Positions 15,572 to 39,411 of a DNA stretch of 64,000 nucleotides are shown here, piece after piece. The notes beneath the pieces are model-generated. The model was given only the letters and a program-made list of their open reading frames with translations, made no database searches and was not told where the DNA came from. The DNA is from an uncultured Candidatus Saccharibacteria bacterium. Its GTDB lineage: Bacteria; Patescibacteriota; Dojkabacteria; SC72. A program made the translations under genes and the position numbers. How positions within the stretch are numbered: position 1 is the stretch's first letter; the number at the start of each line of letters is the position of its first letter. The stretch is from NCBI GenBank assembly GCA_964480345.1, contig CAYZNW010000001.1:82137-146136 (forward strand), written 5' to 3'.

Positions 15572-17470
15572 ATGGGAAAAATAATAGGAATAGACTTAGG
15601 TACAACAAACTCTGCCATGGCATACATGGAGGGTGGAAAACCAAACATAATTGCTAACTCACAGGGTGGAAGATTAACTCCATCTATAGTTGCAGAAGAT
15701 GACAAAGGAGAGGTCTTAGTTGGAACTCCTGCAAAGAACCAAGCAGTTATGAACCCAGAGGGAACAATTTACTCAGTTAAGAGGTTGATTGGTAGAAGCT
15801 GGGATGATCCAGAAGTGGTGAAAGACAAAAAATTGTTACCGTTTGAAATGAGAAAAGCTTCAAATGGTGGAATAGAGGTCAAGATGGGAAGTAAATGGTA
15901 TACACCTCAGGAAATTTCTGCAAAAGTTCTATCTAAGATGAAAAATGATGCAGAGGAATTTCTAGGAGAGAAAGTTACTGAAGCAGTAATAACTGTACCA
16001 GCATACTTTGACGACTCACAGAGACAAGCTACTAAAGATGCAGGAAAGATTGCAGGTTTAGATGTAAAAAGAATAGTCAATGAGCCTACTGCAGCAGCTT
16101 TAGCATACGGAATCGAGAAAGGTAAAGATGAGAAAGTCGCAGTATTTGACTTAGGTGGAGGTACATTTGATATCTCTATCTTAGAAATGGGAGATGGAGT
16201 CTTTGAGGTTCTCTCTACAAATGGTGATACTCATCTAGGAGGAGATGACTTTGACCAAGTAATTATTGATCATCTTGCAGATCTGTTTAAGAACAAAGAG
16301 GGATTTGATTTGAGAACAGATAGAACAGCTTTACAAAGATTGAGAGAGGGTGCAGAGAAAGCTAAGATAGAATTATCTACTACAGAAGAGACAGAGATAA
16401 ATATTCCATACATTACAGCAACAGATAAAGGACCAAAGCACTTGAAGGAGAAGTTAACTAGATCAGAGTTAGAGAAATTAACCTCTAGTTTGATTGCTAA
16501 GACAGTTGAACCTTGTGAAAAAGCATTGAAAGATGCAAAGTTAGATAAGGGTGATATTAATGAAGTCTTACTTGTAGGAGGAATGTCTAGAATGCCTGCA
16601 ATTCAAAAGAAAGTTACTGAGATATTTGGTAAAGAACCAAACAAAGGAGTAAATCCTGACGAAGTAGTAGCTTTAGGTGCAGCAATTCAAGGTGGAGTAT
16701 TAGGAGGAGATGTAAAAGATATTACACTTCTTGATGTAACTCCTCTATCTCTTGGACTTGAGACTCTTGGTGGTATTATGACTAGATTGATAGATAGAAA
16801 TACAACTATTCCTGTAGAGAAGAAACAGATCTTTTCAACTGCAGCAGATAACCAACCAGCAGTAGAGATTCATATTCTTCAAGGAGAGAGAGAAATGGCA
16901 AGCGATAACAAGACTTTAGGAAGATTTGTCTTAGATGGAATACCATCTGCTCCAAGAGGAGTCCCACAAATTGAAGTATCTTTCTCAATAGATGCTAATG
17001 GAATATTAAATGTAAAAGCTGTGGATCTTGCTACAAAGAAAGAGCAGAAGATTACAATTACAGCATCTACAGGTTTGAAAGAGGAGGAAATAAATAAGAT
17101 GGTAGAAGAGGCAGAAAAGAACGCAGATGAAGATAAGAAGAAGAAAGAAAGGGCGGAGAAGAGAAATGATGCAGATACACTCTCATTTAATGCATTAAAG
17201 ATGATAGAGGATAACGGTGAGAAGATAGAAGAAGCTCAGAAGGAAGATATTAAGAAGAAAGCAGAAGAATTAAAAGAGATGATTAGTAAAGAAGATTTCG
17301 ATCTTGAGGAAGTAGATAAGAAATCTGAAGAGCTAAGTAAGGTGATGCAAGAGGTAGGCAAAAAGATGTATGAAGATGCAGCAAAAGAATCTGCAGAGAA
17401 GAGCGAATCTCAGCCATCAGAAGAGGGTGAGAAGAAAGAAGATGTCAAAGAGGGTGAAGTTGTAGAGTAA
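15572..17470 (+). CDS. dnaK: Molecular chaperone DnaK (Hsp70)
   Basis: [26 protein letters not shown], and an acidic/lid C-terminus. 632 aa. Confidence 0.97.
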
Positions 17471-17520: not shown

Positions 17521-19869
17521 ATGCTAACATCTATCGATAATAATATATTTACCTGCCCAATTATGTCAGAAGATCAAAAAGAGAACCTATCAGATAGTTC
17601 GAAAATTAGTAGGATACAAAGATATTTACTGTATATCTTAGCTTTCATATTACCTCTCGCAATTATTCCACTCCCTTGGGATTGGAACGAAATTCCTATG
17701 TCTTTATGTATCCTCTCATTTACTGTAGTTATTTTAGCTCTTGAGATTGTTAAACTAGTGAAGAGTGGGAAGATTACAATACTTAAATCATCTCTAGATT
17801 TATCTGTCTTTTTACTTCTCTCCTCATATATCCTATCTACACTTTTTTCTAAAGATATAAATAGTAGCTTATGGGGAGTAGATCATAGATTAGGAAACGG
17901 TTTAATACTATTTATTGCAATAATAGCGTTGGCTTTTCTTGCTAGATCTTTCATAAGAGACCTACGACATATTAAAATGTTTTTCTTCTCTTTCACAATA
18001 GGGCTTTTGATAGACAATATCCTTAGTATGCTTGCTTTCTTCGATATCAATATCTGGTCGATTCTTCCTGTATATAAAGATATGTTCCAAGAAGGATTGC
18101 CTGTATTAAGATCTGCAAAAATATATATTCTTACAAATGCAACCAGTCTTCTAATGGCTTTCGGCTTCATAGGAGAGTACATAATCTCAAAAGGTAAAAA
18201 GAGTGTGATGTTGATCTCATTACTTACGGCCTTACTATCTGCTATTGGCATTGTTATGTTCTCAATAGTACAAGGTACAGGTTTAGTAATATTCTTCTTG
18301 TTACTCTTCGTTGGCATGAATATATTTGTAGTAACAAAATTCAAACTATCTCCTGGCTCATACAAAAACATTTTGGTACTATTCTTACTTACTACATTAG
18401 CAATCACTATTCCGTTTGCCTTGCTTCATATTCCATCATTAAGAGAGAACTGGATACCTGAAGATATCAAACTTGTAGGCCAGGTCTTTCTTGGTGTAGA
18501 TCTATCTTGGGCTATAGCTTCATCTGTATTTGTTAATTCCATACAATCAGCATTTTTAGGATTTGGAGTAGACACATACTCTATTGCATACAATATGTTT
18601 AAACCTGTAACTACTACTCTCTTGCCTTACAACACAGTAACTTTCTACAGTGCAGGAAGTGAAATATTTACGAATTTTACTAATGGAGGATTGTTCTGGC
18701 TTTTCTGCTGGGGTTTCCTAGGTTATTCCGTAGTTAGATCTCTGATTAATGATTTTAAGAAATTGAAACTAAGTACAGACAAAGTGAATACTTGGTATCT
18801 GTTAATATCTGATTCCATAATTGTACTGATTTTTGGATCCTCTCTCTTTACATCATTCTCTGTAATAAATGTCTTACTTCTGATTCTGATGATCTCAGTT
18901 AGAGGAATTCTAAAAGACATACTAAGTGACGGAAAAGAAGAGAAATTCGTCTTTAAATTATGGGCAGGGAATGTATCTACATCTGTTGAAGAAAAAAACA
19001 AATTTAGAAATACATACATAATACTGTATGTTCTAATCATGTTTGTTACCTTATTCTTCTTAAGAATATGGGTTTGGAAGTTAGTATCAAATATGTATAT
19101 GTTAAGAGCAGAGGCATACTACTCTGTAGAGAAAGATAAGATAGAGAATCCTAAAGTGTCGTATGAGGAGAAAGAAGCAATTGCAGATAGAATGATTTCT
19201 TACTATATAAATGCTGTTAAATATGATGAGAAGAATCCACATGCTCATAGAAAGCTCGCCATGATGTATATGGATAAAGTTAATGTTGGAGTAAGGAAGT
19301 ATCTTTCTGTAGCAGAGAATCAAAGAGATTCTAAATTAGCTAATGATATAAACAAGCTAAAAAATTACGCTATAGATTCTTCGAAGAAGAGTTCCGACTT
19401 CTCTGAAAATATTTATGCAAACTGGGAAGCTAGAACTAATGTATATATGGGCCTTGTAGGGGTAGGTTACAATGATTTCATACAAGACAGTATCAACTCT
19501 ATAGAGAAAGCTGCATCTTTAAATCCTTCTAACTTTGAACTGTATTTTAGTGAAGCTCAGATGTACATCATAAATAAGGATAGAGATAGTGCGCTATCAT
19601 CACTTACAAAAGTATTAGGTATTAATCCTCAGTATATTCCTGGACTTCTTCTCTCTGCAGATTTAAATAAAGAAGCAGGTAGGTTAGATGTATATGAATC
19701 GTATTTACAAGCTGCCAAGAAAATATTAGAAACAAATAATGCTATGGATAGAGATATCTATACAGAGATAGTAAACAAACTTAAAGAATTAGAAAGTAAG
19801 TCTAATACTAATAATACAAATGAAAGTGTTAAAGAAGAAGTAACTAAGCCTAAGCAGAATCAGGAGTAG
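17521..19869 (+). CDS. Polytopic membrane protein, O-antigen ligase/polymerase-like (Wzy_C-like) with C-terminal TPR-like repeats
   Basis: About 12 predicted TM helices across the first 470 aa, then a soluble helical-repeat C-terminal region (Y/A/N-rich, TPR-like). The annotated ATG abuts the dnaK terminator T-run. The second ATG at 17563 (MSEDQKEN...) is the likelier start. Confidence 0.4.
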   Translation: MLTSIDNNIFTCPIMSEDQKENLSDSSKISRIQRYLLYILAFILPLAIIPLPWDWNEIPMSLCILSFTVVILALEIVKLVKSGKITILKSSLDLSVFLLLSSYILSTLFSKDINSSLWGVDHRLGNGLILFIAIIALAFLARSFIRDLRHIKMFFFSFTIGLLIDNILSMLAFFDINIWSILPVYKDMFQEGLPVLRSAKIYILTNATSLLMAFGFIGEYIISKGKKSVMLISLLTALLSAIGIVMFSIVQGTGLVIFFLLLFVGMNIFVVTKFKLSPGSYKNILVLFLLTTLAITIPFALLHIPSLRENWIPEDIKLVGQVFLGVDLSWAIASSVFVNSIQSAFLGFGVDTYSIAYNMFKPVTTTLLPYNTVTFYSAGSEIFTNFTNGGLFWLFCWGFLGYSVVRSLINDFKKLKLSTDKVNTWYLLISDSIIVLIFGSSLFTSFSVINVLLLILMISVRGILKDILSDGKEEKFVFKLWAGNVSTSVEEKNKFRNTYIILYVLIMFVTLFFLRIWVWKLVSNMYMLRAEAYYSVEKDKIENPKVSYEEKEAIADRMISYYINAVKYDEKNPHAHRKLAMMYMDKVNVGVRKYLSVAENQRDSKLANDINKLKNYAIDSSKKSSDFSENIYANWEARTNVYMGLVGVGYNDFIQDSINSIEKAASLNPSNFELYFSEAQMYIINKDRDSALSSLTKVLGINPQYIPGLLLSADLNKEAGRLDVYESYLQAAKKILETNNAMDRDIYTEIVNKLKELESKSNTNNTNESVKEEVTKPKQNQE

Positions 19870-26674: not shown

Positions 26675-26708
26675 TTAATATGTTTCTGGCTCATGTTATC
26701 ATATTTTA

Positions 26709-28496
26709 ATGATTACAGAAAAATTTACAAAAAAGCTATCATCTCTAAGAAATGTCCTCTCGTTTATATATTCAAAGTATACAGGTTATGCTGTATCAAG
26801 AGATATACTTTGTATCCTCTCAGCATTTGCAGAGATAGCATCTATTACTTTTCTAGGTAAATTTATTGATACTACTACAAGAATATTTCTAGAATGGGAT
26901 AATTTTAATCTAACAGAATACATTAGATCTGATTCTTTCTTCTATCTTCTTTTAATATTACTTCTTTGGATACTCTCTCAGATCACTGCACAGGCCAGAG
27001 CGTATTTGTATGACACAATAACTGAGAAAATTGCAAAAGATACACAAGAGATGATGATAGGGAAAGTTGCAGTATCCAATATGCAGGATGTAGAGAAAGA
27101 AGACTATCAAGATATGATTACATACGCTCCTGTTTTCTCTATTCCTAAAATAGCTCCTGTATATGATTATTTCTCAGTCATATTAAGCAATATTATCCGT
27201 CTTGTTTCTGCAGTAGTTATCATCTATTCGACAATGGGATGGTCAGTACTTTTCATTACTCTCTTTGTAATTCCTGAAATATTAATTACACATTTTAGAA
27301 GAAGGAAAATTCGTAAATATCAAGACGAATCTGTAGGTAAATTAAAATTTCTTGCATATATTCAAAACCTTGCACTTACAATCTCAAACTTTTTTGAATT
27401 AAGAGTAAACAACATATATTCATATATAAAAAGAAGACATGAAAGTGAATATGAAGAGTATCAAAAAGGATATCTAAGCAAAGTATCCTCTTTCTATGTG
27501 GATAAAACAGCAGCAAGTGTAGTAGGACAAGTTTTCAAATATGCATATATATTGTATGTCCTTTCTATCTCAATATTTAAAAAGATTTCATTTGGTACAT
27601 TTAAAGCTCTCTATGATTATGTAGATGTAGCATATACAAGTATTTACAACATCTTGAATTCTGTTTCTTTAGTAAGTATTAATCTCGGATATATTGATAA
27701 GTTCTTCGGATTAGTGGAATACGATTGTTTTGGAGATAGATATCATGGTGAAAAGAAATTGAAAAGCTCAACTCCTGTCTTGGAATTCAAGAAATTAAGC
27801 TTTGCATATCCAGATGATCCTACTACTACAGTATTGAAAAATTTAAACATTACAGTTAACCCAGGAGAGCGAGTAGCATTTCTCGGCGGAGATGGTTCAG
27901 GTAAGAGTACCGTTGTAAAGATTCTTACGGGATTGTATACAGTAGAGCAAGGAGAGTATCTCTTAGATGGAGTGCCTACAAAGGATTTAGATAGAGGAGA
28001 GTTAAAGAAAAAGCTCTCCGTAATCTTCCAAGACTATATAAACTACAATTTTAGTGTTCGAGAAAATGTAGTTATATCTGGCCAGAGAAAAAATATAGAT
28101 ACAGATCTCTACAAAAAAGTAACTAAGATAGCTGGAATAGATGCTTTGAAAAAGAAAGCACATATTGATGATAGTGGTATTCTTGGAAAAGTTTTTCCAT
28201 CAGGCAAAGATCTTTCTCCTGGATACTGGCAAAGATTAGCAATTGGGAGAATGTTGTATAGAAATAGAAACATATTTGTAATGGACGAGCCTTTTACTCA
28301 TGTGGATGATATCTCTGCTGATACGATGCTAAATGAGATCTTCAAGTTTGTAGGTAGTTCAAAATCGGTCATATATATTACAAGGCGAACCAAATTTTTA
28401 AATCAATTTGATAGGGTGTATGTGTTTGAGAATGGAAAAATAGTAGATGAGGGAAAATGGAGTGATATAAAAGCAAGGCTAGGAGTATCTTCATGA
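26709..28496 (+). CDS. ABC exporter, fused permease-ATPase
   Basis: An N-terminal 6-TM domain. Walker A is GGDGSGKSTVVK. The signature-like LSPGYWQRLAIGR is degenerate relative to LSGGQ. Walker B is IFVMDEPFTHVD. Confidence 0.8.
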   Translation: MITEKFTKKLSSLRNVLSFIYSKYTGYAVSRDILCILSAFAEIASITFLGKFIDTTTRIFLEWDNFNLTEYIRSDSFFYLLLILLLWILSQITAQARAYLYDTITEKIAKDTQEMMIGKVAVSNMQDVEKEDYQDMITYAPVFSIPKIAPVYDYFSVILSNIIRLVSAVVIIYSTMGWSVLFITLFVIPEILITHFRRRKIRKYQDESVGKLKFLAYIQNLALTISNFFELRVNNIYSYIKRRHESEYEEYQKGYLSKVSSFYVDKTAASVVGQVFKYAYILYVLSISIFKKISFGTFKALYDYVDVAYTSIYNILNSVSLVSINLGYIDKFFGLVEYDCFGDRYHGEKKLKSSTPVLEFKKLSFAYPDDPTTTVLKNLNITVNPGERVAFLGGDGSGKSTVVKILTGLYTVEQGEYLLDGVPTKDLDRGELKKKLSVIFQDYINYNFSVRENVVISGQRKNIDTDLYKKVTKIAGIDALKKKAHIDDSGILGKVFPSGKDLSPGYWQRLAIGRMLYRNRNIFVMDEPFTHVDDISADTMLNEIFKFVGSSKSVIYITRRTKFLNQFDRVYVFENGKIVDEGKWSDIKARLGVSS

Positions 28497-28514: not shown

Positions 28515-29369
28515 ATGCAGATATTGGATGGAAAAAAACTTTCTGAAGAACTACTGTTTGATATTTCTGAAGAAATAGTACGATTGAAAGCAGATGGTAA
28601 AGAAACACCTAGGCTCGATGTCATAATAGCTGGAACTGATTTCGGGAGTATTAAGTATGTTCAGATGAAAGAGAAGACAGCGAAAGAGATAGGGCTAACA
28701 GCTCAGGTTCATTACTTACCTAGCGATGTTAACACTCTTGATATTGTAAATCTGATAGATTCATTAAATAAAGATAGCTCAGTAACAGGAGTTATGGTGC
28801 AATTACCATTACCTTCTCATGTTGATACAAACACGGTTCTTGAAAGCATCTCACCACTAAAAGATGTTGATGGATTAACATCTACTAATCTAGGTAAATT
28901 GTTTCAGAAAAATCCAACAGCTATTTCTCCTGCTACTCCATTAGGAATCATAAGATTGTTGGAGGAGTACAATATTAAAATTTTTGGAAAACATGTAGTA
29001 ATTTTAGGAAGCAGTAATATAGTAGGAGTTCCACTAACTGCTTTAATGCTTCAGCGTCATGCTACTGTATCTTTATGTAACTCACAAACTACAGATTTTG
29101 AAGAGACAGTAAAACTAGCTGACATTTTAGTTTCAGCTACAGGTAAGGCTCTGTTAATAAAAGGAAAATATCTAAAAAAAGATTGCGTTGTGGTTGATGT
29201 CGGATCAAATAGACATCCTGAAACTGGGAAATTAGTTGGAGATGTTGATTGGGATTCAGTACAAGGAATTCCTTCTTTCATAACTCCTGTGCCAGGAGGA
29301 GTAGGTCCAATAACAATTGCTTCATTAATGTTAAATTTAATGAATTGTTACAAGAATGATAAAGGATAG
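28515..29369 (+). CDS. folD: Bifunctional methylenetetrahydrofolate dehydrogenase/cyclohydrolase FolD
   Basis: ILDGKKLSEELL, VIIAGTDFGSIKYVQMKEK, VVILGSSNIVGVPLTALMLQ and PVPGGVGPITIASLM blocks. Confidence 0.85.
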   Translation: MQILDGKKLSEELLFDISEEIVRLKADGKETPRLDVIIAGTDFGSIKYVQMKEKTAKEIGLTAQVHYLPSDVNTLDIVNLIDSLNKDSSVTGVMVQLPLPSHVDTNTVLESISPLKDVDGLTSTNLGKLFQKNPTAISPATPLGIIRLLEEYNIKIFGKHVVILGSSNIVGVPLTALMLQRHATVSLCNSQTTDFEETVKLADILVSATGKALLIKGKYLKKDCVVVDVGSNRHPETGKLVGDVDWDSVQGIPSFITPVPGGVGPITIASLMLNLMNCYKNDKG

Positions 29370-30585
29370 TGAAATTGAAAAGTTAATTAATTCTGAGATA
29401 GAAAGACAGAGAAGTGGGATAGAGTTAATTGCTTCAGAAAATTATGTATCACAATCTGTTTTGGAAAGTATGGGTTCTATTCTGACTAATAAATATTCTG
29501 AAGGCTATGCTGGTAAAAGATATTACAAAGGTAATATCTTTGTAGATGAAATAGAGTTGGAGGCAATCAATAGAGCGAAAGAATTATTTGGTGCTGAGCA
29601 TATTAATGTTCAACCTTACTCTGGCTCCATAGCGAATCTTGCAGTTCATTTTGCGCTTCTTGAAGTAGGAGATAAGACTTTGGGAATGGCACTAGATTCT
29701 GGTGGACATCTGACTCACGGTTTTAAAGTTTCAATAAGTGGTAAGTACTTTAACTCTGCTAGTTATGAGGTTAATGAAAAAGGTTTCTTAGATTACAATG
29801 AAGTGAGAAGAATAGCTTTGGAACATAAACCGAAATTAATATGGGCGGGGTTCTCTGCATATTCTCGAATCATCGATTGGGGAGAGTTTAGAAAAATAGC
29901 TGATGAAGTAGGAGCATATCTTGTTGCTGATATAGCTCATGTTGCAGGATTAGTTGCAGTTGGAGAGTATCCATCTCCTGTTGGTATTGCAGATGTCGTA
30001 ACAACTACAACTCACAAGACGCTCAGGGGGCCTAGAGGAGCTATGATTATGTGTAATGAGGAACTAGGAGAGAAAATAGATAAGGCAGTGTTTCCAGGGC
30101 TTCAGGGAGGTCCTCACAATCATATTACAGCAGGTATAGCAGTTGCTTTAAAGGAAGCATCAACTCCAGAGTTCAAGGAGTATATTAACCAGGTTATTAA
30201 AAATTCAAAATCTCTTGCAAATTCATTATCTGAGAAAGGATACGAAATAGTTTCTGGAGGTACTGATAACCATATGTTCTTAGTTGATGTTGTCTCTTCA
30301 ATAGATTTAGGAGGAGAAGAAGTCTCTACAATTTTGGAAAAAGTGAATATTACATTAAACAAGAATGCTATACCTCATGACAGTAGAAAACCTTGGAATC
30401 CTTCAGGTATTAGAATAGGCACGCCTGCTATTACAACAAGAGGTTTGAAAGAGGAGGATATGGTGGTAATTGCTGAATTCATAGATAGAGCTTTGAGAAA
30501 CAAGGATGATGAGAAAGCTTTAAGTAATATTAAGCAAGAGGTTAAAGATTACATGTCAAAGTTTCCTCTTCCTACACTTAATTAA
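29356..30585 (+). CDS. glyA: Serine hydroxymethyltransferase
   Basis: ELIASENYVSQSVLESMGSILTNKYSEGYAGKRYY and the TTTTHKTLRGPRGAMI PLP-lysine region. Overlaps folD by 14 nt. Confidence 0.95.
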   Translation: MIKDSEIEKLINSEIERQRSGIELIASENYVSQSVLESMGSILTNKYSEGYAGKRYYKGNIFVDEIELEAINRAKELFGAEHINVQPYSGSIANLAVHFALLEVGDKTLGMALDSGGHLTHGFKVSISGKYFNSASYEVNEKGFLDYNEVRRIALEHKPKLIWAGFSAYSRIIDWGEFRKIADEVGAYLVADIAHVAGLVAVGEYPSPVGIADVVTTTTHKTLRGPRGAMIMCNEELGEKIDKAVFPGLQGGPHNHITAGIAVALKEASTPEFKEYINQVIKNSKSLANSLSEKGYEIVSGGTDNHMFLVDVVSSIDLGGEEVSTILEKVNITLNKNAIPHDSRKPWNPSGIRIGTPAITTRGLKEEDMVVIAEFIDRALRNKDDEKALSNIKQEVKDYMSKFPLPTLN

Positions 30586-30597
30586 AAATAAAGAAAC

Positions 30598-32193
30598 ATG
30601 AAGATTAGTTTTAGAAAAGATTTGAATATAGCGACGATAAGGTCTGAATCAGCATGGAATAAATTTAAAATACATACTCTCTTACAGAACGGTGAGAGGA
30701 AACAATCATCTATAAATGCATACCTGGGGGCTATGTATAGTCGTACCTCTGATTCTATATTAGATATTGCTTCTGAGATAGTTATACATAGTAGTAACCT
30801 TACTGAGAAGTTAGAAAAACTTCTATCAGAGTATCGACAAAAAGTTGTTGGAGATATGGCCAATTTATTTGTTTGTATTGAAGATATTCCAATATTGACA
30901 GCTATGAAGATTTTCTATTCCAATTCTTCATTAACTGGACAGGAAAGATCACCAAAATATCAAAGAGTTGATAAGTTTGAGTTTATTAAGATACCTCGAG
31001 AAGTTTGTGACAATACTGATGTCAGAAAAGAGTTTGAAAGGATTATGTTAAAACAGTTAGTTGATTACAAGGAGATGCTAAAACCTACAAGAGAGGAGTT
31101 AGCAAAACATTACTCTATTAATTTAGAGAGTTCTCATGAAAGTGCTTCATTGAAATCTAGAGTGTTTGATGTTGCAGGATATCTTCTTCCTGTAGGTTTA
31201 AATACAAATGTGTCTTACCTAATGTCTGCAAGAGATTGGTCTTCAGAAATATCATATCTGTTAGCAAGTGATTCTGTTGTAGATAATGAATTAGCAGACC
31301 TATTGATTAGCTTACTTGGCGAGGGTCGTTTAGAATTAAAGGGGTATATTAAAGAAGCAGATGGTTTGATAGGAGATGTAGATGCTAATTGTAATAGAAA
31401 GAATTCTACTGAAGAAGTCATTAACTATTTGAAGAAATATATTTCAACAGAACAGGCTAAGGATATTCCTGAGAGAGAGACAGAATCTATTTCCGTGACT
31501 TACTCGCCTGATTGTACTGAGACTTTGATTTCACATTATGAATCTTTAATTAATCCTTTAGGTTCAGCACATGAATTAGAATTTTCAGATGAGGATCAGG
31601 AGTATATTAGTGATATTCTGTTTGAGAGACATGATCATAATAATACGATAGGGAATATGGGGCAGTCTGGTGCTATCAAAATCTCAGGATTTGCATCTTT
31701 AAGGGTATTAAAATACCTAAATAGTTTTAGAAGTTTAGAACGATTTATTCCTTTGTTGCATGATAGTGTCGATATGAATCAAGAGTTAGATCGTAGAAAT
31801 GATCAATGTTTCTATCTTTGTACATATTTAAATATTCCTAGTATGTCTAAATTGAAGAAAGAGTATCAGAAGAGGTTAGAGGAAACATATGAAAGGATTA
31901 AAGCATGGAGAAAGTACGCTATGGATTTTATGTCAGAAGATTTAGTTGATGAATTTACCAAGTATCTTTTACCTCATGCTCACTCTACAAAGTATCTTAT
32001 GTATGGTTCTTTTGATGATCTACAATATTTGATAAATAACGGAATTCGAAATGGAGTACATATTGATTGTAGAGTTCTTCTTTATGAATGGTTACGATTG
32101 CTTTCATTGAAAGATCCTATATGGAGGTCGTTGCTTAAAAAAGTAATTACTCCGAAAGTAGATGATAAGTTTCAGTTTGTAGATAGAAGTTAA
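30598..32193 (+). CDS. Hypothetical 531-aa protein in the folD-glyA-dcd operon, possibly a divergent Thy1/ThyX-like fold
   Basis: Tightly coupled between glyA (13-nt gap) and dcd (20-nt gap). The segment LFVCIEDIPILTAMKIFYSNSSLTGQERSPKYQRV weakly resembles the ThyX block F.IEGVSR....RHR.AS.SQESQRY, but the RHR triad is not conserved. No other recognisable motif. Confidence 0.3.
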   Translation: MKISFRKDLNIATIRSESAWNKFKIHTLLQNGERKQSSINAYLGAMYSRTSDSILDIASEIVIHSSNLTEKLEKLLSEYRQKVVGDMANLFVCIEDIPILTAMKIFYSNSSLTGQERSPKYQRVDKFEFIKIPREVCDNTDVRKEFERIMLKQLVDYKEMLKPTREELAKHYSINLESSHESASLKSRVFDVAGYLLPVGLNTNVSYLMSARDWSSEISYLLASDSVVDNELADLLISLLGEGRLELKGYIKEADGLIGDVDANCNRKNSTEEVINYLKKYISTEQAKDIPERETESISVTYSPDCTETLISHYESLINPLGSAHELEFSDEDQEYISDILFERHDHNNTIGNMGQSGAIKISGFASLRVLKYLNSFRSLERFIPLLHDSVDMNQELDRRNDQCFYLCTYLNIPSMSKLKKEYQKRLEETYERIKAWRKYAMDFMSEDLVDEFTKYLLPHAHSTKYLMYGSFDDLQYLINNGIRNGVHIDCRVLLYEWLRLLSLKDPIWRSLLKKVITPKVDDKFQFVDRS

Positions 32194-32212: not shown

Positions 32213-32794
32213 ATGATACTTTCAGATATTACAATTAAGGAAAAATTAAAGAGTGGGGATATTGTTATAGAGCCTTTCTCTGAAGAGTTTTTGCAACCAG
32301 CTTCGTATGATCTTCATTTGGATAGGTATTTTATGGTGTTTAATAAGGAGAGTGTAGGATTAATAGATGTTAGAAAGAAATGTGAAAATTTAATGAGAGA
32401 GGTAGATATTGGTAAGGGTGGTTCATTTATAATTCATCCAGGAGAGCTTGTTCTTGCAAATGTTCAAGAGATTGTGGGAGTAGGAGATAAATATGTTGGT
32501 AGATTAGAGGGTAAGAGTTCACTTGGTAGGATAGGATTGATAGTTCATGCTACAGCAGGTTTCTTGGATCCAGGTAATAAGTTAAGGATGACTTTGGAGT
32601 TAGCAAATCTTTCTTCGTTACCAATTAAGATATATGAAGGGATGAAGATTTCTCAGATAGCTTTTGAAGAGTTGGATAAGGCTTGTGAGAGACCGTACGG
32701 TAGTAAAAGCTTAAATAGTAAATATATAGGGGATACCAAGGTTAAGGGTAGCCTAATATGGAAGAATTTCTACAAGAAGAAATCTACATCATAG
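32213..32794 (+). CDS. dcd: dCTP deaminase
   Basis: SYDLHLD, IIHPGELVLANVQE and GFLDPGNKLRMTLELAN blocks of Dcd/dUTPase-fold deaminases. Confidence 0.85.
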   Translation: MILSDITIKEKLKSGDIVIEPFSEEFLQPASYDLHLDRYFMVFNKESVGLIDVRKKCENLMREVDIGKGGSFIIHPGELVLANVQEIVGVGDKYVGRLEGKSSLGRIGLIVHATAGFLDPGNKLRMTLELANLSSLPIKIYEGMKISQIAFEELDKACERPYGSKSLNSKYIGDTKVKGSLIWKNFYKKKSTS

Positions 32795-33890
32795 GAGGAA
32801 CTTGTGGAAGTTCACTTGATGGAGTCTCATCTACTTTAGGTTCAATTGTTGGAGTACTTTCTGGTTGAGCAGGGATACTGTTGATTTCTCCATTAACTAA
32901 ATCTTGTAAGTCATTATGTTGTGTACTCTGTTCAGGAATAGTCGTATCTGGTTGTATCAATGTCTCTGTATCTATGTTTTGTGCTGGTACAGTACTCTCT
33001 TGTGGATTTAGGTAGTCAACTGCTACTTGAGGATTTAATCCTGCATCGACAGGAGGTTGGGCAACTTCAGCTGTAGGAGCCTGTTGCTCTTCTAACTTAA
33101 CTTCTTCAACTGGTTGAGTAATAGGTGTTGTTTCTACTACTGGTTCTTGTTGAATAGTTGGAGTTTCTGCAAGAGAAGGAGTTGGTTCAGCCTGTATAGG
33201 TGTATCTACAACAACAGGTTCTGGCATAATTTCTGCAGGTTGAGATACTGCAGGTTGTACTTCTTGAGAAAAGGTTTCTGGCATAACAGGAGCTACTGTA
33301 GCTTCTGCCTGTGGAGAAATTTGTCCTTGTTCTTGATTTACTATTTCAGCTAATGTTGGTTTAGCACCGTTTAAATTATCTTCTTTTGTTTCGTTGGTTA
33401 GATTGGCAGGAATATTGTTCATATTTATACCATCAGGTATTGCTACAGGAGGTGTAGCTTGTTCTGGAGTTACTTGTATAACTTCTTCTGTTCCCTTCTT
33501 CTTGTTACTTAAGAGAATACCGATGATACTAACTAGCAAGATAACTGAACCTGCTATTAATACATATGGTAGATAGTCCATATATGCTGTTGTCTTCTTA
33601 GTTGTAGTAGTGGTTGTTGTCGTAGAGGAAGTTGTTGTTGGTGTCGTAGTAGTGGTAGGTGTTGTCGTAGTCTTTTCTTCATTGGTAGTAGGAGTCTCTG
33701 TTGTAGTATCAGTGGTTTTTGTTGTCGTACTGTCTGTAGTTTTTGTTGTCGTGCTATCTGTAGTTGTTGTAGTATCACTATCTGCAACAGGAGTTGGTGT
33801 ACTTTCTAAGGATGTAGTTTGAGCAGATACAACTAAAGGAAAAGCGAGTAATATACTGAAAATAACAAAGGATTTTAATATTTTTTTCAT
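32784..33890 (-). CDS. Secreted/membrane mucin-like protein: signal peptide, Thr-rich repeat region, TM helix, P/Q/E-rich tail
   Basis: The signal peptide MKKILKSFVIFSILLAFPLVVSA is followed by TTTTDSTTTKTTDSTTTKTTDTTTETPTT...TTTTTTTT. A TM helix (LPYVLIAGSVILLVSIIGILL) comes next, then about 240 aa of low-complexity P/Q/E/T-rich sequence. Confidence 0.5.
   Translation of the reverse strand: MKKILKSFVIFSILLAFPLVVSAQTTSLESTPTPVADSDTTTTTDSTTTKTTDSTTTKTTDTTTETPTTNEEKTTTTPTTTTTPTTTSSTTTTTTTTKKTTAYMDYLPYVLIAGSVILLVSIIGILLSNKKKGTEEVIQVTPEQATPPVAIPDGINMNNIPANLTNETKEDNLNGAKPTLAEIVNQEQGQISPQAEATVAPVMPETFSQEVQPAVSQPAEIMPEPVVVDTPIQAEPTPSLAETPTIQQEPVVETTPITQPVEEVKLEEQQAPTAEVAQPPVDAGLNPQVAVDYLNPQESTVPAQNIDTETLIQPDTTIPEQSTQHNDLQDLVNGEINSIPAQPESTPTIEPKVDETPSSELPQVPPMM
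33608..33821 (-). repeat. Thr-codon low-complexity/tandem repeat tract within the mucin-like gene
   Basis: Runs of gttgttgt/gtcgtag with near-identical ~24-nt units at 33717-33764 (ttttgttgtcgtactgtctgtag / tttttgttgtcgtgctatctgtag) encode TTDSTTTK twice. This is a slippage-prone tract. Confidence 0.5.
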
Positions 33891-34025: not shown

Positions 34026-35246
34026 ATGAATTACCAAGACCTAAATATATTACAAAATGGAATTCCTTCAAATGATGGGGCTACCTCTTCTGTAGACGAA
34101 AATTTAAATGAAATATCTGAATTAGAAAAGAAATTACTAAACTCTTCCTCTCCTGATAGCTTAAAAGAAGAGGCCATGAGATCTATTACTAGATTGAAAA
34201 GAATGGCAAAGATGGGAGGATATAGTAGTGAATTTGAAAATGTTAATAAATATATTGATTGGATAGTAAGAATCCCTTGGGGAGTTATCTCTGATGATAA
34301 CTTGGATATTAACAATGCAAAGGTATTGATGGATAAGAGTCACTACGGAATGAATGATATTAAAGATTTGATTGTGAATTATCTAGCTACTATGCAATTA
34401 GAAAATGTCAAAGGTAATACAATAGGAGTTCAGCCTATGCCTACTCAATTTGGTACTGTATCTTTAGAACCTCAACAAGAAATCCCTGATATGGCTCTCT
34501 TGAAAGGCTCCTCTGCAAATGCTCCTGTTTTACTCTTTGTAGGTTTGCAAGGTGTTGGTAAAACCTCTATTGCAAAATCTATTGCTAATGCAATGAATAG
34601 GAAATTCGTAAGAGTATCCCTTGGTGCTATAGGAGACGTCAGAACTCTTCGTGGTACTCCAAGATATTCTATAGATGGAGAACCAGGTCAGATTATTAAA
34701 GCACTTATTAGATGTGGTACTATGAATCCTGTTATTCTTCTTGATGAGATTGAGAAATCTAGTGGTAACTCAGGGTTAATGAACGATGTTATGGCAACTC
34801 TTCTTGAGATTTTAGATCCAGAACAAAATTCTACCTTTATAGACCACTATATCGATTATCCTGTTGACTTATCTAAAGTATTCTTCATTTGTACAGCTAA
34901 TAATCTTGGTGGTTTGTCTGCTGCTTTACTTGATAGGGTTGAGGTTATTAGGTTTACAAGCTATACCGATGAGGAGAAGGAAGTTATTGCTAAGCAGTAT
35001 ATTCTTCCAAAAGTTTATGAGAATCTACATATATCTTCTGATCATGTAGTTATAGATGATGATGTTTGGCCAAGCTTGATTAGACCGGTTGGTTTTGATG
35101 CTGGTATTCGTCAGCTAGAGAGAAATATTGCAACTATGATGAGAAGTGCTGCAAGAATGATTGTTGAGAAGAGTCCTTTACCTATCAGAATAACTAAAGA
35201 GAATCTAAATCAATTTGTTCTTTCAGATCAAGGTCCTCTAAGCTAA
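34026..35246 (+). CDS. Stand-alone Lon-like AAA+ ATPase module (no LON N-domain, no S16 protease domain)
   Basis: KYIDWIVRIPWGVISDDNLDINNAKVLMDKSHYGMNDIKDLIVNYLA aligns to the Lon linker (YIDWLL.LPW...DL..A...LD.DHYGL..VKERILEYLAV). Walker A is VGLQGVGKTS, Walker B is VILLDEIEK, sensor-1 is TANN, the Arg finger is LLDRVEVIRF, and sensor-2 is GIRQLER. The ORF stops at ...ENLNQFVLSDQGPLS, exactly where the Lon protease domain would begin. Confidence 0.75.
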   Translation: MNYQDLNILQNGIPSNDGATSSVDENLNEISELEKKLLNSSSPDSLKEEAMRSITRLKRMAKMGGYSSEFENVNKYIDWIVRIPWGVISDDNLDINNAKVLMDKSHYGMNDIKDLIVNYLATMQLENVKGNTIGVQPMPTQFGTVSLEPQQEIPDMALLKGSSANAPVLLFVGLQGVGKTSIAKSIANAMNRKFVRVSLGAIGDVRTLRGTPRYSIDGEPGQIIKALIRCGTMNPVILLDEIEKSSGNSGLMNDVMATLLEILDPEQNSTFIDHYIDYPVDLSKVFFICTANNLGGLSAALLDRVEVIRFTSYTDEEKEVIAKQYILPKVYENLHISSDHVVIDDDVWPSLIRPVGFDAGIRQLERNIATMMRSAARMIVEKSPLPIRITKENLNQFVLSDQGPLS

Positions 35247-35485
35247 TATCCTTTGAATGGGTTCGAAAGTCTCAGAGCAGAAACTGCTACTTTAATCTGT
35301 GGCTCTTTTATTCCTTTTGCAATATTAGCCTTATACATACTTTTATCTTCTGCTTTCTGTAGAAGATTTAAATCATCTTTTTTCTCTTCAGTAGATATAG
35401 TGCTAGTATCAATTGCTTGTGTAACTAAGTAGTTTTCCTCTTTTATTGTATTTTTAATATCTTGGTTGTTGTTCATTCTCTTCAC
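35243..35485 (-). CDS. Small hypothetical protein (80 aa) at the distal end of the VirB4-like operon
   Basis: An ORF overlapping the 3' end of the VirB4-like gene by 32 nt. No TM helix and no motif, so it may be spurious. Confidence 0.2.
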   Translation of the reverse strand: MKRMNNNQDIKNTIKEENYLVTQAIDTSTISTEEKKDDLNLLQKAEDKSMYKANIAKGIKEPQIKVAVSALRLSNPFKGY

Positions 35486-37943
35486 CTGGATAACTTTCTA
35501 TAATTCCTTGAGGAGTTAGATGGGATTTACCTTTTTGAGTTTTCATCCTGTCTGCAATAACTTGTCCAGACAATGTTTTCTCTTCTATGTTCTGTACAAA
35601 GCCTTTCTGACTTTCATATTTCTGAGGATTTAATTGCATCTCTTGTTGTCTTAATCTTTCTTCTAGCTCTTTTTGATACTGTACTCTTTCTTCCTCTAAG
35701 AACGATTTCTGAGTTTCTTTTCTTTGTAAAGCTTCTTGAATTATTTCATCTTGTCTTCCTATCTTTCCGTCTCTCATAGGTCTCTGTTGTGCTGGTGTAT
35801 CATAGATTTGTGCGAGTTCTTCTAAAGTTCTTGTATCTTCCTGCCCAGCTCTTTCAGCAAGTTTCTCTAAATCTCTAGGATCGGAGGTGATTAACTCGTG
35901 CTCTGATTGACTAGAAAGTACCTCTATACCTACATGGTTTGAACCTGCAAAGAATAGTCCTTGTCCTTTATCACAGTTCAGTAGGAAATTCTTCTCTCCG
36001 TCTGAGAGGTTAAATACTTCTTGTAATTTGTCTGCTGCAGTAGGACTTTGCATCATGAGCATTTGAAGAGAAGAGTTTGAGATGATAGCTTTACCCATAT
36101 CGTTATTTAAGAAGTCATTAACATCTTGTGTAATTGTAGAGAGTCCAAGGTAGTATTTTCTTGCCCTTTTTGCAATTGAGTACATGAACTTTGCTGAGTC
36201 AGCTGATTGCATCATATACCATGCTTCATCCACTACCAGTATTCTTCTCTTTCGATCTTTTCTAACTTTTGTCCAAATGAAGTCCAACATTAAGTACATT
36301 GCTAACGGTTTTAATTCTTCTTGTAAGTCTCTAATACTAAATACGGTCATCGGATTGTTGATTTCAAAGTTACTAGCTTCATTAAAAACACCTGCACCAC
36401 TACCTATGATATATTTTTCTAATCTTCTTGCTAAGCTATGTGCTTCAGGCTCTGCCATTCCTTTTAATACTTTGTACAAATCTTCCAGTAGAGGAGGTTG
36501 TTTAGTTTGTGAGGCAGGATCATATGTTATTCCTTTTTCTCGGTAGGTTAATACTAGTGCTCTGTCTAGAATAGAGCCTTCCAAGCTGGTTAAATCTTGA
36601 TAGAGTACTTTGAAGAAGCCCTGTAAGGAGAGTAATTTCATCCTTAGTTCATCATCTCCCTCTTCTGTAGCTCCTGCTAATTCAAATGGATTCATCTTGT
36701 TTCCTTTATCTTGTGAGAAAGAGATATATGCTCCATTCACAGCTGAGGATAGATTCTCATACTCTCTTTCTGGGTCAATGATGATAATTTCGGTACCAAG
36801 CATTAAGCTTCTAACGGCTTCTAATTTAACAAAATAGCTCTTACCAGCTCCTGATTTTGCAAATACTACAGTGTTGGCATTCTCTAATTCAAATCTGTCG
36901 AATATGATTAAACTCTTATTATGCATATTTAATCCATACATAATTCCGTGATCCATAGTTAACTCTGATGTTACAAAAGGAAATGTAGTGGCCAGAGAGG
37001 TAGTATCCATATTTCTAGTGATATACAGGTTGTCTATTCCTAGAGGTTGAGTACCTATAAAGCCTTGTTCCTGTTGTAAAGTCGCTGATTTTGCTGTCAC
37101 ATTAATTGCTGCTAGGGTGGATGTTACATTCCTAGCAATTTTTTCAAGTTCGTCTTTTGATTTTGCATACATTGTTATATACATTGTGAAGTGGAAGAAT
37201 TTCTCGGTACCCTCTGCTATGGAGTCTTGTAACTGTTGTGCATCAGAAAGTGCAACTTTCAATGAAGGATCTACGACTTTTCTCTCTTCCATTTGTGTGT
37301 ACAGAGTTGCTTCCATTTCTCCAATTTTCTTTTTAAGCTTGTCTAAGATGGTTTTAGAATCTACAGGGTAGTAGAAAGTACTTATTCTAAGAGAGTGTTC
37401 GAAGTTAATGATAGGGGAAAGCCAGTTAGGTCCTACAAATCTAGGATATCCACTAACAAAAAGTGTCTTAAAGTAATACTCTCCCATTTGCAAATGGTTG
37501 AAATCTATCTCTAGATCCATAGGGGCTATCATATCTTGTGTTGATATATTGCTGTTTTCATCTAATGCTGATGATGGAGTGAAAGAGGGATCTTCATTAA
37601 CTATTTCTTTGACCTCTTCTTTTTCTTCTCCGTTTTTACTTGTTTCTTCTTGTACTTTATTGTTTTTGTTTACCTTCTCCGCTATTGAATCAAGTAGCTT
37701 AATGAGGATGTTTTTCTTCTTTTTTGGTTTTTCATCATCTTCCTTTAGAGGATCAAAGTATCTGTTCCTACTATCATTTGGATCTTTACTCTCTTGAATC
37801 TTTCTCATTTCACTATCTACAGATTCTCTGAATTGAGCATATTTTTGGCTATCTGTTTTCAAAAGATTACTCTGCTCGCGCATTGTCTTAGCGGAGTTAT
37901 TTTCAAATGTTCGGTTGTAGTTATTTTTACTTAAATCTTCCAT
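35454..37943 (-). CDS. VirB4/TrbE/TraC-family type IV secretion ATPase (AAA_10-like)
   Basis: Walker A is VVFAKSGAGKSYFVK. Walker B is RRILVVDEAWYMM, carrying the DEAW hallmark of VirB4/TraC. An upstream block MDLEIDFNHLQMGEYYFKTLFVSGYPRFVGPNWLSPIINFEHSLRISTFYYPVD resembles the VirB4 N-domain. The N-terminal ~130 aa is K/E-rich and disordered. Confidence 0.65.
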   Translation of the reverse strand: MEDLSKNNYNRTFENNSAKTMREQSNLLKTDSQKYAQFRESVDSEMRKIQESKDPNDSRNRYFDPLKEDDEKPKKKKNILIKLLDSIAEKVNKNNKVQEETSKNGEEKEEVKEIVNEDPSFTPSSALDENSNISTQDMIAPMDLEIDFNHLQMGEYYFKTLFVSGYPRFVGPNWLSPIINFEHSLRISTFYYPVDSKTILDKLKKKIGEMEATLYTQMEERKVVDPSLKVALSDAQQLQDSIAEGTEKFFHFTMYITMYAKSKDELEKIARNVTSTLAAINVTAKSATLQQEQGFIGTQPLGIDNLYITRNMDTTSLATTFPFVTSELTMDHGIMYGLNMHNKSLIIFDRFELENANTVVFAKSGAGKSYFVKLEAVRSLMLGTEIIIIDPEREYENLSSAVNGAYISFSQDKGNKMNPFELAGATEEGDDELRMKLLSLQGFFKVLYQDLTSLEGSILDRALVLTYREKGITYDPASQTKQPPLLEDLYKVLKGMAEPEAHSLARRLEKYIIGSGAGVFNEASNFEINNPMTVFSIRDLQEELKPLAMYLMLDFIWTKVRKDRKRRILVVDEAWYMMQSADSAKFMYSIAKRARKYYLGLSTITQDVNDFLNNDMGKAIISNSSLQMLMMQSPTAADKLQEVFNLSDGEKNFLLNCDKGQGLFFAGSNHVGIEVLSSQSEHELITSDPRDLEKLAERAGQEDTRTLEELAQIYDTPAQQRPMRDGKIGRQDEIIQEALQRKETQKSFLEEERVQYQKELEERLRQQEMQLNPQKYESQKGFVQNIEEKTLSGQVIADRMKTQKGKSHLTPQGIIESYPGEENEQQPRY

Positions 37944-37945
37944 TT

Positions 37946-38581
37946 TTACTCTTCATCTGGGTTATATATTGTGTAAAACTCAGAAATTAACTCCTTATTG
38001 GTTAGTTGATGGCCAAACAATCCCATACGACTCAATTGTTTAAGAATATGATCTCTCTTAGGATAGAGGAATATCTTAGCTTTTTCCAGGAGCTGTCCTA
38101 CTTCCATTTCTTTTACTTTCTCTTCTTCTCCTTTTGCTTTTTTAGATTTGAATATTGATACATTAGGTAATTGTCCTAATGGGTAATATGGAATTACTAT
38201 GAAGAAGCTCTTGTCTAATACATCGTTCTGAACAATTAGATTTTGTACAAATTTAGAATATATTTCTAATTGTTTTTTCAAACCTTCACTCATCTCTCTT
38301 TCTTTCTGATTGTTTAAATAGTCTATGTAGTTGCTGATATCTACTCTTTTTGTTCTTATGAGGATTTGTATTCTAAAGTTTAATGAATTCAGTAATCCTG
38401 CAAAGGCATAAATTTTGTTGTCTTGCTCGTATTCTGCTAAAAGTTCAAAGTTAATTGAAGATGTTTGTATAACCATCGATACACTTCCATTTTTATTTAT
38501 TACCAAGTCATCTGCTATTTCCTTGATGGCTAAGTGTTCTTGTGTTGATGCTGTTGCTCTTGCACGAGCATTTTTATCCAT
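37946..38581 (-). CDS. Hypothetical soluble protein translationally coupled between PrgI-like and VirB4-like genes (possible detached VirB4 N-terminal-like domain)
   Basis: Has 2-nt gaps to both neighbours and no TM helix. The segment HLAIKEIADDLVINKNGSVSMVIQTSSINFELLAEYEQD...FAGLLNSLNFRIQIL is reminiscent of the N-terminal region of Gram-positive VirB4 homologues. This is an inference from memory of those families. Confidence 0.35.
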   Translation of the reverse strand: MDKNARARATASTQEHLAIKEIADDLVINKNGSVSMVIQTSSINFELLAEYEQDNKIYAFAGLLNSLNFRIQILIRTKRVDISNYIDYLNNQKEREMSEGLKKQLEIYSKFVQNLIVQNDVLDKSFFIVIPYYPLGQLPNVSIFKSKKAKGEEEKVKEMEVGQLLEKAKIFLYPKRDHILKQLSRMGLFGHQLTNKELISEFYTIYNPDEE

Positions 38582-38583
38582 AT

Positions 38584-39411
38584 TTATACTGCATTAATCT
38601 TAATTGGTAATCTATTATTTATGTTATCCATCATTATTTCAACTGATGGAAAAGTATATTGTGGATGTTGAAATGTTAATGAATAATTACCTTTCTCCCA
38701 TATTTGATTTGTTAAGAAATATCCATTTGGACCTGTTTTATTTGCATAAAGGATTTTACCTTCAGAATTTCTTAAGTAAGAAATCACATTAGGTATAGGT
38801 TTATAATCAGGTGTACAAAGCCAACAATTAATATTTCCAGGTAAATCTTCCATACCTTTTGTAGAAAATTGATAGTTAGAGATATTCTCATCCGTTATTA
38901 TTAATTTCAGTGGATCTATTTGTTGTACTTTCTCATCAGTATTTGTTTCTAGAATATCCATTTCATCTTTCTCATCCTCTTGCGTATCTTCTTTTTTTAA
39001 TGAATCTAAACTAATACCTATGATTTTTTTCTTCTCTTTTTTCTGATCTTTGTGTATTAAGGTTCCATCTTCTGCTGGTTTAATTAAAGGTTTAGTTCTT
39101 TCCTCTTTCATCTCTTTGTTTAACCAAGTTCGCTGAGTAGGGTTGTTAATAGCGGCGATGTAACTTTGAATAAATTTGTCTGCATCTTGATCATTGATTG
39201 GTACAAGTCCAAGTATGATTCCTAATGATGAGCTGACAATACAAACTGGGATTCCAAGTAATGCAGGGATTATATTTGAGACGACTAAATATATCATTAA
39301 ACCACCGAAACCAACCCCTACTGCTAGGTATGCGAATTCCTTTAATGTGAATTTAGTGAATAACTTAAATTCTACATCTAAAACATTTTGTGGTATTGCA
39401 TGTTGTCTCAT
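38584..39411 (-). CDS. PrgI/VirB3-like small membrane protein with a ~150-aa C-terminal extension
   Basis: The N-terminus FKLFTKFTLKEFAYLAVGVGFGGLMIYLV plus a second TM helix matches the PrgI-family (VirB3-like) layout found immediately upstream of VirB4 genes. The C-terminal extension is K/E/D-rich and ends in a CWLC-containing domain. Confidence 0.45.
   Translation of the reverse strand: MRQHAIPQNVLDVEFKLFTKFTLKEFAYLAVGVGFGGLMIYLVVSNIIPALLGIPVCIVSSSLGIILGLVPINDQDADKFIQSYIAAINNPTQRTWLNKEMKEERTKPLIKPAEDGTLIHKDQKKEKKKIIGISLDSLKKEDTQEDEKDEMDILETNTDEKVQQIDPLKLIITDENISNYQFSTKGMEDLPGNINCWLCTPDYKPIPNVISYLRNSEGKILYANKTGPNGYFLTNQIWEKGNYSLTFQHPQYTFPSVEIMMDNINNRLPIKINAV

Follow-up and report, generated by a model that had tools for sequence, protein, structure and literature searches.

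Gene X, the fourth gene of an ABC-folD-glyA-X-dcd cluster, is an eroded member of a fused, double-length form of the flavin-dependent thymidylate synthase ThyX. The split-site fusion and the retained but eroded copy are its notable features; its fold, pathway setting, and family name come as no surprise. By analogy with canonical ThyX, and with slightly better than even confidence, we interpret X as a ThyX-derived pseudoenzyme or a protein of altered role, in which the ancestral chemistry would be lost or severely impaired and the fold would still be useful. Throughout, the window denotes the whole stretch of DNA that was analyzed (64,000 nucleotides), to which all coordinates refer.

Fold, family and locus of gene X

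In the ORF list of the window, gene X comprises 531 codons and begins with ATG. An independent assembly (L004) carries an identical operon and encodes an X protein that is 100% identical, which excludes an assembly artefact. The cluster contains the following features:

26675..26702, + strand: candidate sigma-70-like promoter, TTAATA-16-TATCAT with TG (consensus scan, pattern match only)
26709..28496, + strand: ABC exporter-type permease/ATPase, the first gene of the cluster (Pfam ABC_tran and ABC_membrane)
28515..29369, + strand: folD, methylene-THF dehydrogenase/cyclohydrolase (Pfam THF_DHG_CYH_C 190 bits, THF_DHG_CYH 112 bits)
29356..30585, + strand: glyA, serine hydroxymethyltransferase, the methylene-THF source (Pfam SHMT 533 bits; NF000586 592 bits)
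30598..32193, + strand: gene X, long-form (tandem Thy1) ThyX-family protein, eroded copy, 531 aa (ORF, Pfam Thy1, AF2, fold matches, homologs)
32213..32794, + strand: dcd, dCTP deaminase, the last gene of the cluster (Pfam DCD 152 bits; TIGR02274 174 bits, cutoff 92.8)

The initial annotation had described a 531-aa ORF within a gene cluster of this order, and this was borne out. All five genes (5/5) lie on the + strand. The ABC gene and folD are 18 nt apart, folD and glyA overlap by 14 nt, and gaps of 12 and 19 nt separate X from glyA and dcd, respectively. A pattern scan found no terminator-like site in the intergenic gaps of the operon, and the promoter-like site directly 5′ of the ABC gene is possibly the operon promoter.

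The order and strand of ABC-folD-glyA-X-dcd are kept in ~50 Dojkabacteria loci, those of the nearest relatives included, and the ABC gene was found 5′ of folD in ~45 related loci. A regulatory or defunct paralogue had been one of the proposals for X; given the same operon in these ~50 loci, it is instead a positional ortholog within the long-form ThyX family and not a duplicated copy. In distant Patescibacteria loci, where X is 40-48% identical, dcd still adjoins X, with dut and tdk close by on the upstream side, on the opposite strand. The very distant long forms P0279 and P0160 have no thymidylate-related neighbors; therefore, operon linkage backs function only in the CPR branches. The closest loci, with GroEL 91-94% identical, mark the organism as a Candidatus Dojkabacteria (CPR/Patescibacteria) bacterium. 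Neither tRNA genes nor Rfam matches were found within the 64-kb window.

Earlier descriptions of X as an unknown protein with no standard motif did not hold. X scored 45.6 bits against Pfam Thy1 (PF02511; gathering score 24.8), with intact relatives at 70-88 bits, and databases already tag the family as ThyX. Against the thyX equivalog model TIGR02170, X reached 12.2 bits and intact long forms 30-45 bits, likewise below the cutoff of 87.9. An AlphaFold2 (AF2) model of X built from 113 homologs had a pLDDT of 89.5 and a pTM of 0.89, and every match at E≤1e-3 in a Foldseek search of this model against the PDB was a ThyX/FDTS structure, so that the ThyX-like fold suggested at the outset, that of Thy1, was recovered. 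The sequence of X gave no meaningful match in a search against the PDB, and no PDB ThyX sequence was found at E≤1 with the family profile; solved ThyX structures are linked to X by fold searches only.

We found more than 150 full-length homologs of ~531 aa, 74-37% identical to X over 100% of its length. Most came from Dojkabacteria, Microgenomates, and Pacebacteria, and for some of them NCBI or JGI pipelines had already assigned the name 'FAD-dependent thymidylate synthase / ThyX'. When 1.8 billion representatives were searched with a profile, 1811 clusters matched, and the 192 at E≤1e-30 were nearly all 500-600 aa long. Members from Ktedonobacteraceae (576 aa) are mostly named 'hypothetical protein', cultured cyanophages carry long forms such as gp020 of Microcystis phage Ma-LMM01 (491 aa, annotated 'thymidylate synthase'), and another long-form member lies on a phage-like 144-kb contig. 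X belongs to this long-form family by full-length homology and its two Thy1 domains, and to the Dojkabacteria branch by its position in the ABC-folD-glyA-X-dcd cluster. The name 'thymidylate synthase' for long forms comes from automated or similarity-based annotation and appears to rest on domain similarity only. Our literature searches found no description or characterization of a double-length or fused ThyX.

Tandem domains and the partition of the active site

X contains two Thy1 domains:

30598..31332, + strand: N-terminal Thy1 domain, about aa 1-245 (Pfam best stretch 64-216; hhalign to TM0449, E=0.0036; model secondary structure)
31483..32190, + strand: C-terminal Thy1 domain, about aa 296-531 (second Thy1 stretch in intact relatives; TIGR02170; hhalign)

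The tandem arrangement that had been suspected was confirmed by two Pfam Thy1 stretches in intact members and by the best TIGR02170 match of P0160, which falls in its C-half (414-543, against profile positions 64-198). In the AF2 model, the order of helices and strands occurs twice along X. Each family half was aligned to T. maritima ThyX (TM0449, hereafter Tm), with a sequence that was confirmed to be identical to PDB 1KQ4. Local hhalign runs, in which a single-sequence template makes for weak statistics, gave E=0.0036 for the N-half against TM0449, 0.15 for the C-half, and 0.004 for the N-half against the C-half, and their residue mapping agrees with the motif tables.

From hhalign and the alignments, R46/S48 of the N-half correspond to Tm R28/S30 (folate loop), H81 to H53, S83 to T55, E116/S118/R120/Y121 to E86/S88/R90/Y91, R194 to R147, and R212 to R165. 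In the C-half, R376-H377-R378 correspond to R78-H79-R80 and R482 to R174. The N-half of the family has no RHR (x-N-S stands in its place) and no R174 equivalent; the C-half has no Ser loop and no R147 or R165 equivalents. In this way the long-form family splits the ThyX motif: RHR belongs to the C-half, the Ser loop to the N-half. The same partition was seen in every branch examined, the phage protein included. Ma-LMM01 gp020 (YP_851034.1) has the tandem architecture of the X family, with GQERSTRYQ in its N-half and NRHRS and LRxRxGGHIxYR in its C-half.

Three subunits contribute to every active site of canonical ThyX: the first provides RHR and the Arg174 equivalent, the second a Ser/Thr and the Arg165 equivalent, and the third the Ser/Arg/Tyr loop and His53 (PMC6514825, PMC5954106, PMC11940539). 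The partition in the long forms matches what would be expected if the C-half had the role of subunit one and the N-half that of the other two, from which we infer a two-site homodimer. Two Thy1 domains fused in one ~530-aa chain would thus divide the canonical active-site residues between them. The C-half would keep the share of subunit 'A' of the ThyX homotetramer (RHR and the Arg174 equivalent), and the N-half would keep the share of the other two subunits (the Ser88/Arg90/Tyr91 loop and the His53, Thr55, Arg147, and Arg165 equivalents). Going by this residue partition, a long-form homodimer would mimic the tetramer, but two of its sites would be complete and two vestigial, where the tetramer has four complete ones.

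For dTMP synthesis, GlyA and FolD would supply methylene-THF and Dcd would supply a deoxyuridine nucleotide. Intact long forms would use both, all from one operon, and pathway knowledge together with gene linkage indicates that they probably work in dTMP synthesis.

Loss of active-site residues under continued purifying selection

In an alignment of ~75 species, the motifs GARYSRS, GYGHKSVGD, GQERSTRYQ, RxFDxxRYxLP, MSARxW, LIRHTD, LKDLNRHRSxERF, and INLRxRNGGHIAYR were essentially invariant. This set is lost only in the lineage of X and its sister P0002 (74% identical, same synteny), apart from a separate loss of the N-half set in another member, P0028. The corresponding sites in X are:

30829..30855, + strand: aa 78-86, EYRQKVVGD (family GYGHKSVGD); with H81Q the equivalent of Tm His53 is gone, and with S83V that of Thr55
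30913..30969, + strand: aa 106-124, FYSNSSLTGQERSPKYQRV, active-site-loop equivalent (family GQERSTRYQ); E116, S118, K120, and Y121 correspond to Tm E86, S88, R90, and Y91
31363..31383, + strand: aa 256-262, GLIGDVD (superfamily GLIRHTD/E), inter-domain, coil in the model (alignments)
31723..31731, + strand: aa 376-378, S-F-R (family RHR, in LKDLNRHRS; alignments)
32032..32073, + strand: aa 479-492, INNGIRNGVHIDCR (family INLRxRNGGHIAYR); R482G, the same in P0002, removes the Tm Arg174 equivalent

The initial annotation had read aa 106-124 as loosely resembling the ThyX signature, with RHR replaced. In a profile alignment the stretch does align to T. maritima ThyX 77-91 (F-RHR-IASYNELSGRY), but no family member has RHR at this site, and the RHR of the family lies in the C-half. 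The family-specific GLIRHTD/E motif is lost in X, P0002, and P0028.

The suspicion that the site is degenerate proved well founded. Of 18 columns without variation in 28 very divergent long forms, X has lost 7 (R46M, H81Q, R120K, R194G, D373Y, R376S, and R482G); the 18 include R46, S48, R49, H81, Q115, S118, R120, R188, D191, R194, D373, R376, R482, and R530. Retained in X are E116, S118, Y121, R188, D191, R212, and R378. Tm R78, R90, R147, R174, and H53 have roles in dUMP and flavin binding, and the first Arg of RHR stabilizes reduced flavin and contacts dUMP (PMC6514825, PMC11940539). In X, these dUMP/flavin-binding residues are replaced by S376, K120, G194, G482, and Q81. Canonical ThyX/FDTS (T. 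maritima TM0449, PDB 1KQ4/1O26; M. tuberculosis, PDB 2AF6) is a homotetramer of ~220-250 aa chains, whereas X is one ~530-aa chain with two non-identical Thy1 domains, at 13-16% identity. No single domain of X holds a full RHR(x7)S, since the N-half has S-N-S and then S118 and the C-half has S-F-R, and most of the ligand-binding arginines are missing. By analogy with the residues studied in canonical ThyX, X would probably be inactive.

Among 209 near-invariant columns, X deviates at 33 and P0002 at 43. The family median is 4, and P0003 and P0004, roughly 70% identical, deviate at 4 and 2. Twenty-one deviant positions are common to X and P0002, and the only derived residues that the two have in common are S204N, S243G, L275I, and R482G. 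At 17/21 of these positions their residues differ, which points away from a new active site common to both and towards released constraint. The changes in P0002 are mostly conservative Arg-to-Lys replacements and might preserve phosphate binding. A neighbor-joining tree nested X and P0002 among intact members and placed P0028 on a separate long branch; in P0028, the loss of the N-half set (folate-loop arginines, H81, and the RHT motif) was an independent event, and RHR and R482 were kept.

These comparisons bear on the possibility that X was neofunctionalized into a Thy1-fold enzyme with another substrate or cofactor, in the manner of the PolB UMP/dUMP methylase, or with a folate-independent use of methylene. 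Streptomyces PolB (PDB 4P5A) is a true paralogue beside a normal thyX and has kept flavin-dependent chemistry. Unlike PolB, X is not a duplicated paralogue: it is the positional ortholog, and its site is eroded. With only 4 derived residues in common, X and P0002 display no visible new active-site signature. We consider neofunctionalization improbable.

Differences between X and P0002 affect 25% of conserved and 26% of variable columns (ratio 0.98), compared with ratios of 0.09-0.19 in intact pairs of similar divergence (Fisher p=4e-6). In the conserved class, dN was 0.160 for X-P0002 vs 0.020 for a control pair, and variable-class dN was similar in the two (0.147 vs 0.117). The X-P0002 dN/dS was 0.079 overall, similar to the 0.04-0.09 of the neighbor genes, and reached just 0.09 in the class of formerly conserved columns; these values are approximate because dS is saturated (>1.5). 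What looked like a disruption of X in one locus (L066) is a masked stretch of 100 N, and the motifs there are intact.

Eroded catalytic motifs would also be found in a recently inactivated, functionless pseudogene in which stops and frameshifts had yet to accumulate. However, neutral decay would bring stops in this AT-rich genome, and the two lineages, with 26% residue difference and dS >1.5, both keep an uninterrupted 531-codon ORF. Neutral decay would also be expected to give a dN/dS near 1, not the roughly 0.08 seen for the whole gene or the 0.09 of the formerly conserved columns. We regard a pseudogene as very improbable indeed.

Three marks of a candidate pseudoenzyme, homology, residue loss, and purifying selection, are found in X. 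In the lineage of X and P0002, the ligand-binding and catalytic residues have been freed from constraint and replaced (RHR to SFR, R482G, R194G, H81Q, R46M, R120K, and D373Y), and the remainder of the protein stays under purifying selection. On the pseudoenzyme or altered-role reading, X would no longer perform flavin-dependent dUMP methylation and would be kept for a non-catalytic or altered role.

Thymidylate supply and relation to known enzymes

The genes dcd, glyA, and folD are intact and constrained in the X operon, which suggests that the cell still needs a dUMP-to-dTMP step. Pfam searches of all large ORFs and tblastn (queries: E. coli ThyA, Tdk, Dut, and FolA, and Tm ThyX) found no thyA, short thyX, tdk, dut, or folA within the 64-kb window, and tblastn with these queries gave no match in the Dojkabacteria flanks either. 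With thyA, short thyX, and tdk all missing from the window, the synthase could still be X itself. Its scaffold would then tolerate the loss of the RHR, Arg147, and Arg174 equivalents, and R378, E116, S118, K120, Y121, R188, and R212, together with the second chain of the dimer, would still bind FAD/dUMP. Such a role would be in keeping with the unchanged operon, with an overall dN/dS of 0.079, and with the retention of the active-site-loop Ser and Tyr. It is harder to reconcile with losses at 7/18 superfamily-invariant positions, two of them being the Arg174 equivalent and the leading Arg of RHR (PMC6514825, PMC11940539), and with sister lineages whose divergent residues at the common deviant sites speak for released constraint and not for a new working solution. 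We hold it unlikely that X is still the cell's thymidylate synthase.

The stronger claim, that X is an active C5-methylating enzyme and the organism's only dTMP source without the RHR, Arg147, and Arg174 equivalents, seems to us rather unlikely. If X were active, its Thy1 fold would have to hold flavin and nucleotide in a rebuilt way, or work with another cofactor or substrate. The RHR, Arg147, and Arg174 equivalents would, on this claim, be invariant in every other known ThyX-type protein. Under the pseudoenzyme or altered-role reading, dTMP would come by another route, encoded outside the window; both the loss of X activity and the alternative dTMP source are what we infer.

Known proteins offer partial parallels. 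Corynebacterium glutamicum has an atypical ThyX (PDB 3FNN/3GE9) described as 'not required for thymidylate biosynthesis', which has the Thy1 fold and was a Foldseek match of X. This ThyX sets a precedent, since its host relies on another synthase and can do without it for dTMP supply. It is of the single-domain homotetramer type in a host with a known thyA, whereas X is a tandem protein for which no alternative synthase was identified. The 'FAD-dependent thymidylate synthase' proteins of Dojkabacteria MAGs are full-length orthologs of X from the same operon. These and the cyanophage long forms keep all invariant residues, in contrast to X with its 7/18 losses, and we found no experimental characterization of either group.

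The ThyX of Chlamydia trachomatis (CT632) is reportedly ~529 aa long and biochemically active (Griffin et al. 2005, J Biol Chem), and it may have the same double-length architecture as X. No Chlamydia protein was among the named matches to the X family, and the searchable literature yielded no description of the length or domains of Chlamydia ThyX.

The long form is frequent among CPR bacteria, Ktedonobacteraceae, and cultured cyanophages, and it fails the curated ThyX equivalog model. If confirmed, the family would be a natural experiment in the subfunctionalization of a homo-oligomeric enzyme, in which a four-site ThyX tetramer became a fused pseudo-heterodimer, each half with the residues of one kind of subunit. 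X offers a candidate ThyX-derived pseudoenzyme. Active-site erosion within an intact, constrained dTMP-precursor operon would, if confirmed, put the thymidylate source of these reduced-genome organisms in question, and the automated label of X as a functional thymidylate synthase would be unsafe for metabolic reconstructions of its lineage.

Genes flanking the operon

The neighbourhood of X, the 531-aa long-form ThyX-family protein of the folD-glyA-X-dcd cluster, includes the following features (window positions):

26709-28496, + strand: ABC exporter-type half-transporter, first gene of the cluster
32784-33890, - strand: Thr/Pro/Glu/Gln-rich low-complexity protein, 368 aa, converging on dcd
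34026-35246, + strand: Lon-like AAA+ protein, 406 aa, matching part of the Lon model
35454-39411, - strand: type IV secretion/conjugation-like cluster of three proteins

The ABC half-transporter is kept at the head of the cluster across Dojkabacteria (the window and ~45 related loci). At the other end, the convergent low-complexity gene overlaps the 3' end of dcd by 11 nt. Its product carries a signal-like segment at the N-terminus and one hydrophobic span, and had no match in a Pfam search; its counterpart varies in length among related loci (400 aa in L001, 460 aa in L085). Most Dojkabacteria loci keep the Lon-like gene 3' of the operon. Because only the AAA and Lon lid part of the 795-position Lon model is matched (positions 250-568), the encoded protein seems to have neither the N-terminal nor the protease domain. 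The type IV secretion/conjugation-like cluster encodes a VirB4/TraG-type P-loop ATPase (829 aa), a PrgI-family protein (275 aa) and a 211-aa protein for which the Pfam search returned no match.

Other genes and RNA content of the window

Further genes comprise four large ORFs without a Pfam match at E<=1e-4 and an alanyl-tRNA synthetase:

17521-19869, + strand: large ORF, 782 aa
45489-47270, - strand: large ORF, 593 aa
53036-55480, - strand: large ORF, 814 aa
61854-63281, + strand: large ORF, 475 aa
51222-52994, - strand: alanyl-tRNA synthetase, 590 aa, with catalytic core and second additional domain

At only 590 aa, the synthetase is short by the standards of bacterial AlaRS. Across the 64-kb window (1-64000), ARAGORN found no tRNA or tmRNA genes and no Rfam family matched at gathering score. 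Even so, the window carries rpoB/rpoC, rpsG, dnaK/grpE/hrcA, groEL, nusA/infB and lepA.

Long-form ThyX in phages

Two long-form genes were located on phage or phage-like sequences:

L087 (GCA_964509955.1, contig CAZDZR010000001.1, 143,940 bp), 6001-7590: P0129, long-form ThyX, 529 aa, motifs intact
L088 (Microcystis phage Ma-LMM01, NC_008562.1), 15717-17192: gp020, long-form tandem-Thy1 protein

The L087 contig, which was binned into a MAG, looks like a large cyanophage-like genome. P0129 is surrounded by phage-type genes (PhoH, NblA, tail-fibre Collar domain, RecA and Acb5 anti-CBASS). Long-form tandem-Thy1 proteins are also encoded by MaMV-DC, Tunturiibacter phage Tunturi_5 and Microcoleus phage My-WqHQDG. 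The cultured-phage proteins are ~491 aa long, are annotated as 'thymidylate synthase' or 'hypothetical protein', and share with the CPR family an identical split-motif pattern, with the Ser/Arg/Tyr loop and His53 equivalent in the N-half and RHR and the Arg174 equivalent in the C-half (T. maritima ThyX numbering).

Distant and eroded relatives of X

In three Patescibacteria/Paceibacterota loci (L063, L068 and L080), X lies immediately 3' of dcd. Upstream of dcd-X, on the opposite strand, are dut (3/3 loci) and tdk (L063 and L080), ~0.1-2.7 kb away. This neighbourhood differs from the Dojkabacteria operon yet remains thymidylate-centred.

A further Dojkabacteria homolog departs from the intact motifs:

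L085 (Logan SRR29243429), 346-1941: P0028 gene

In P0028 the His53 equivalent, the inter-domain RHT motif and the arginines of the folate loop are gone, while RHR, the Arg174 equivalent and the Ser/Arg/Tyr loop remain. The erosion in this third Dojkabacteria lineage is partial and independent, and may represent either an earlier stage of X-type erosion or a folate-site-specific change.
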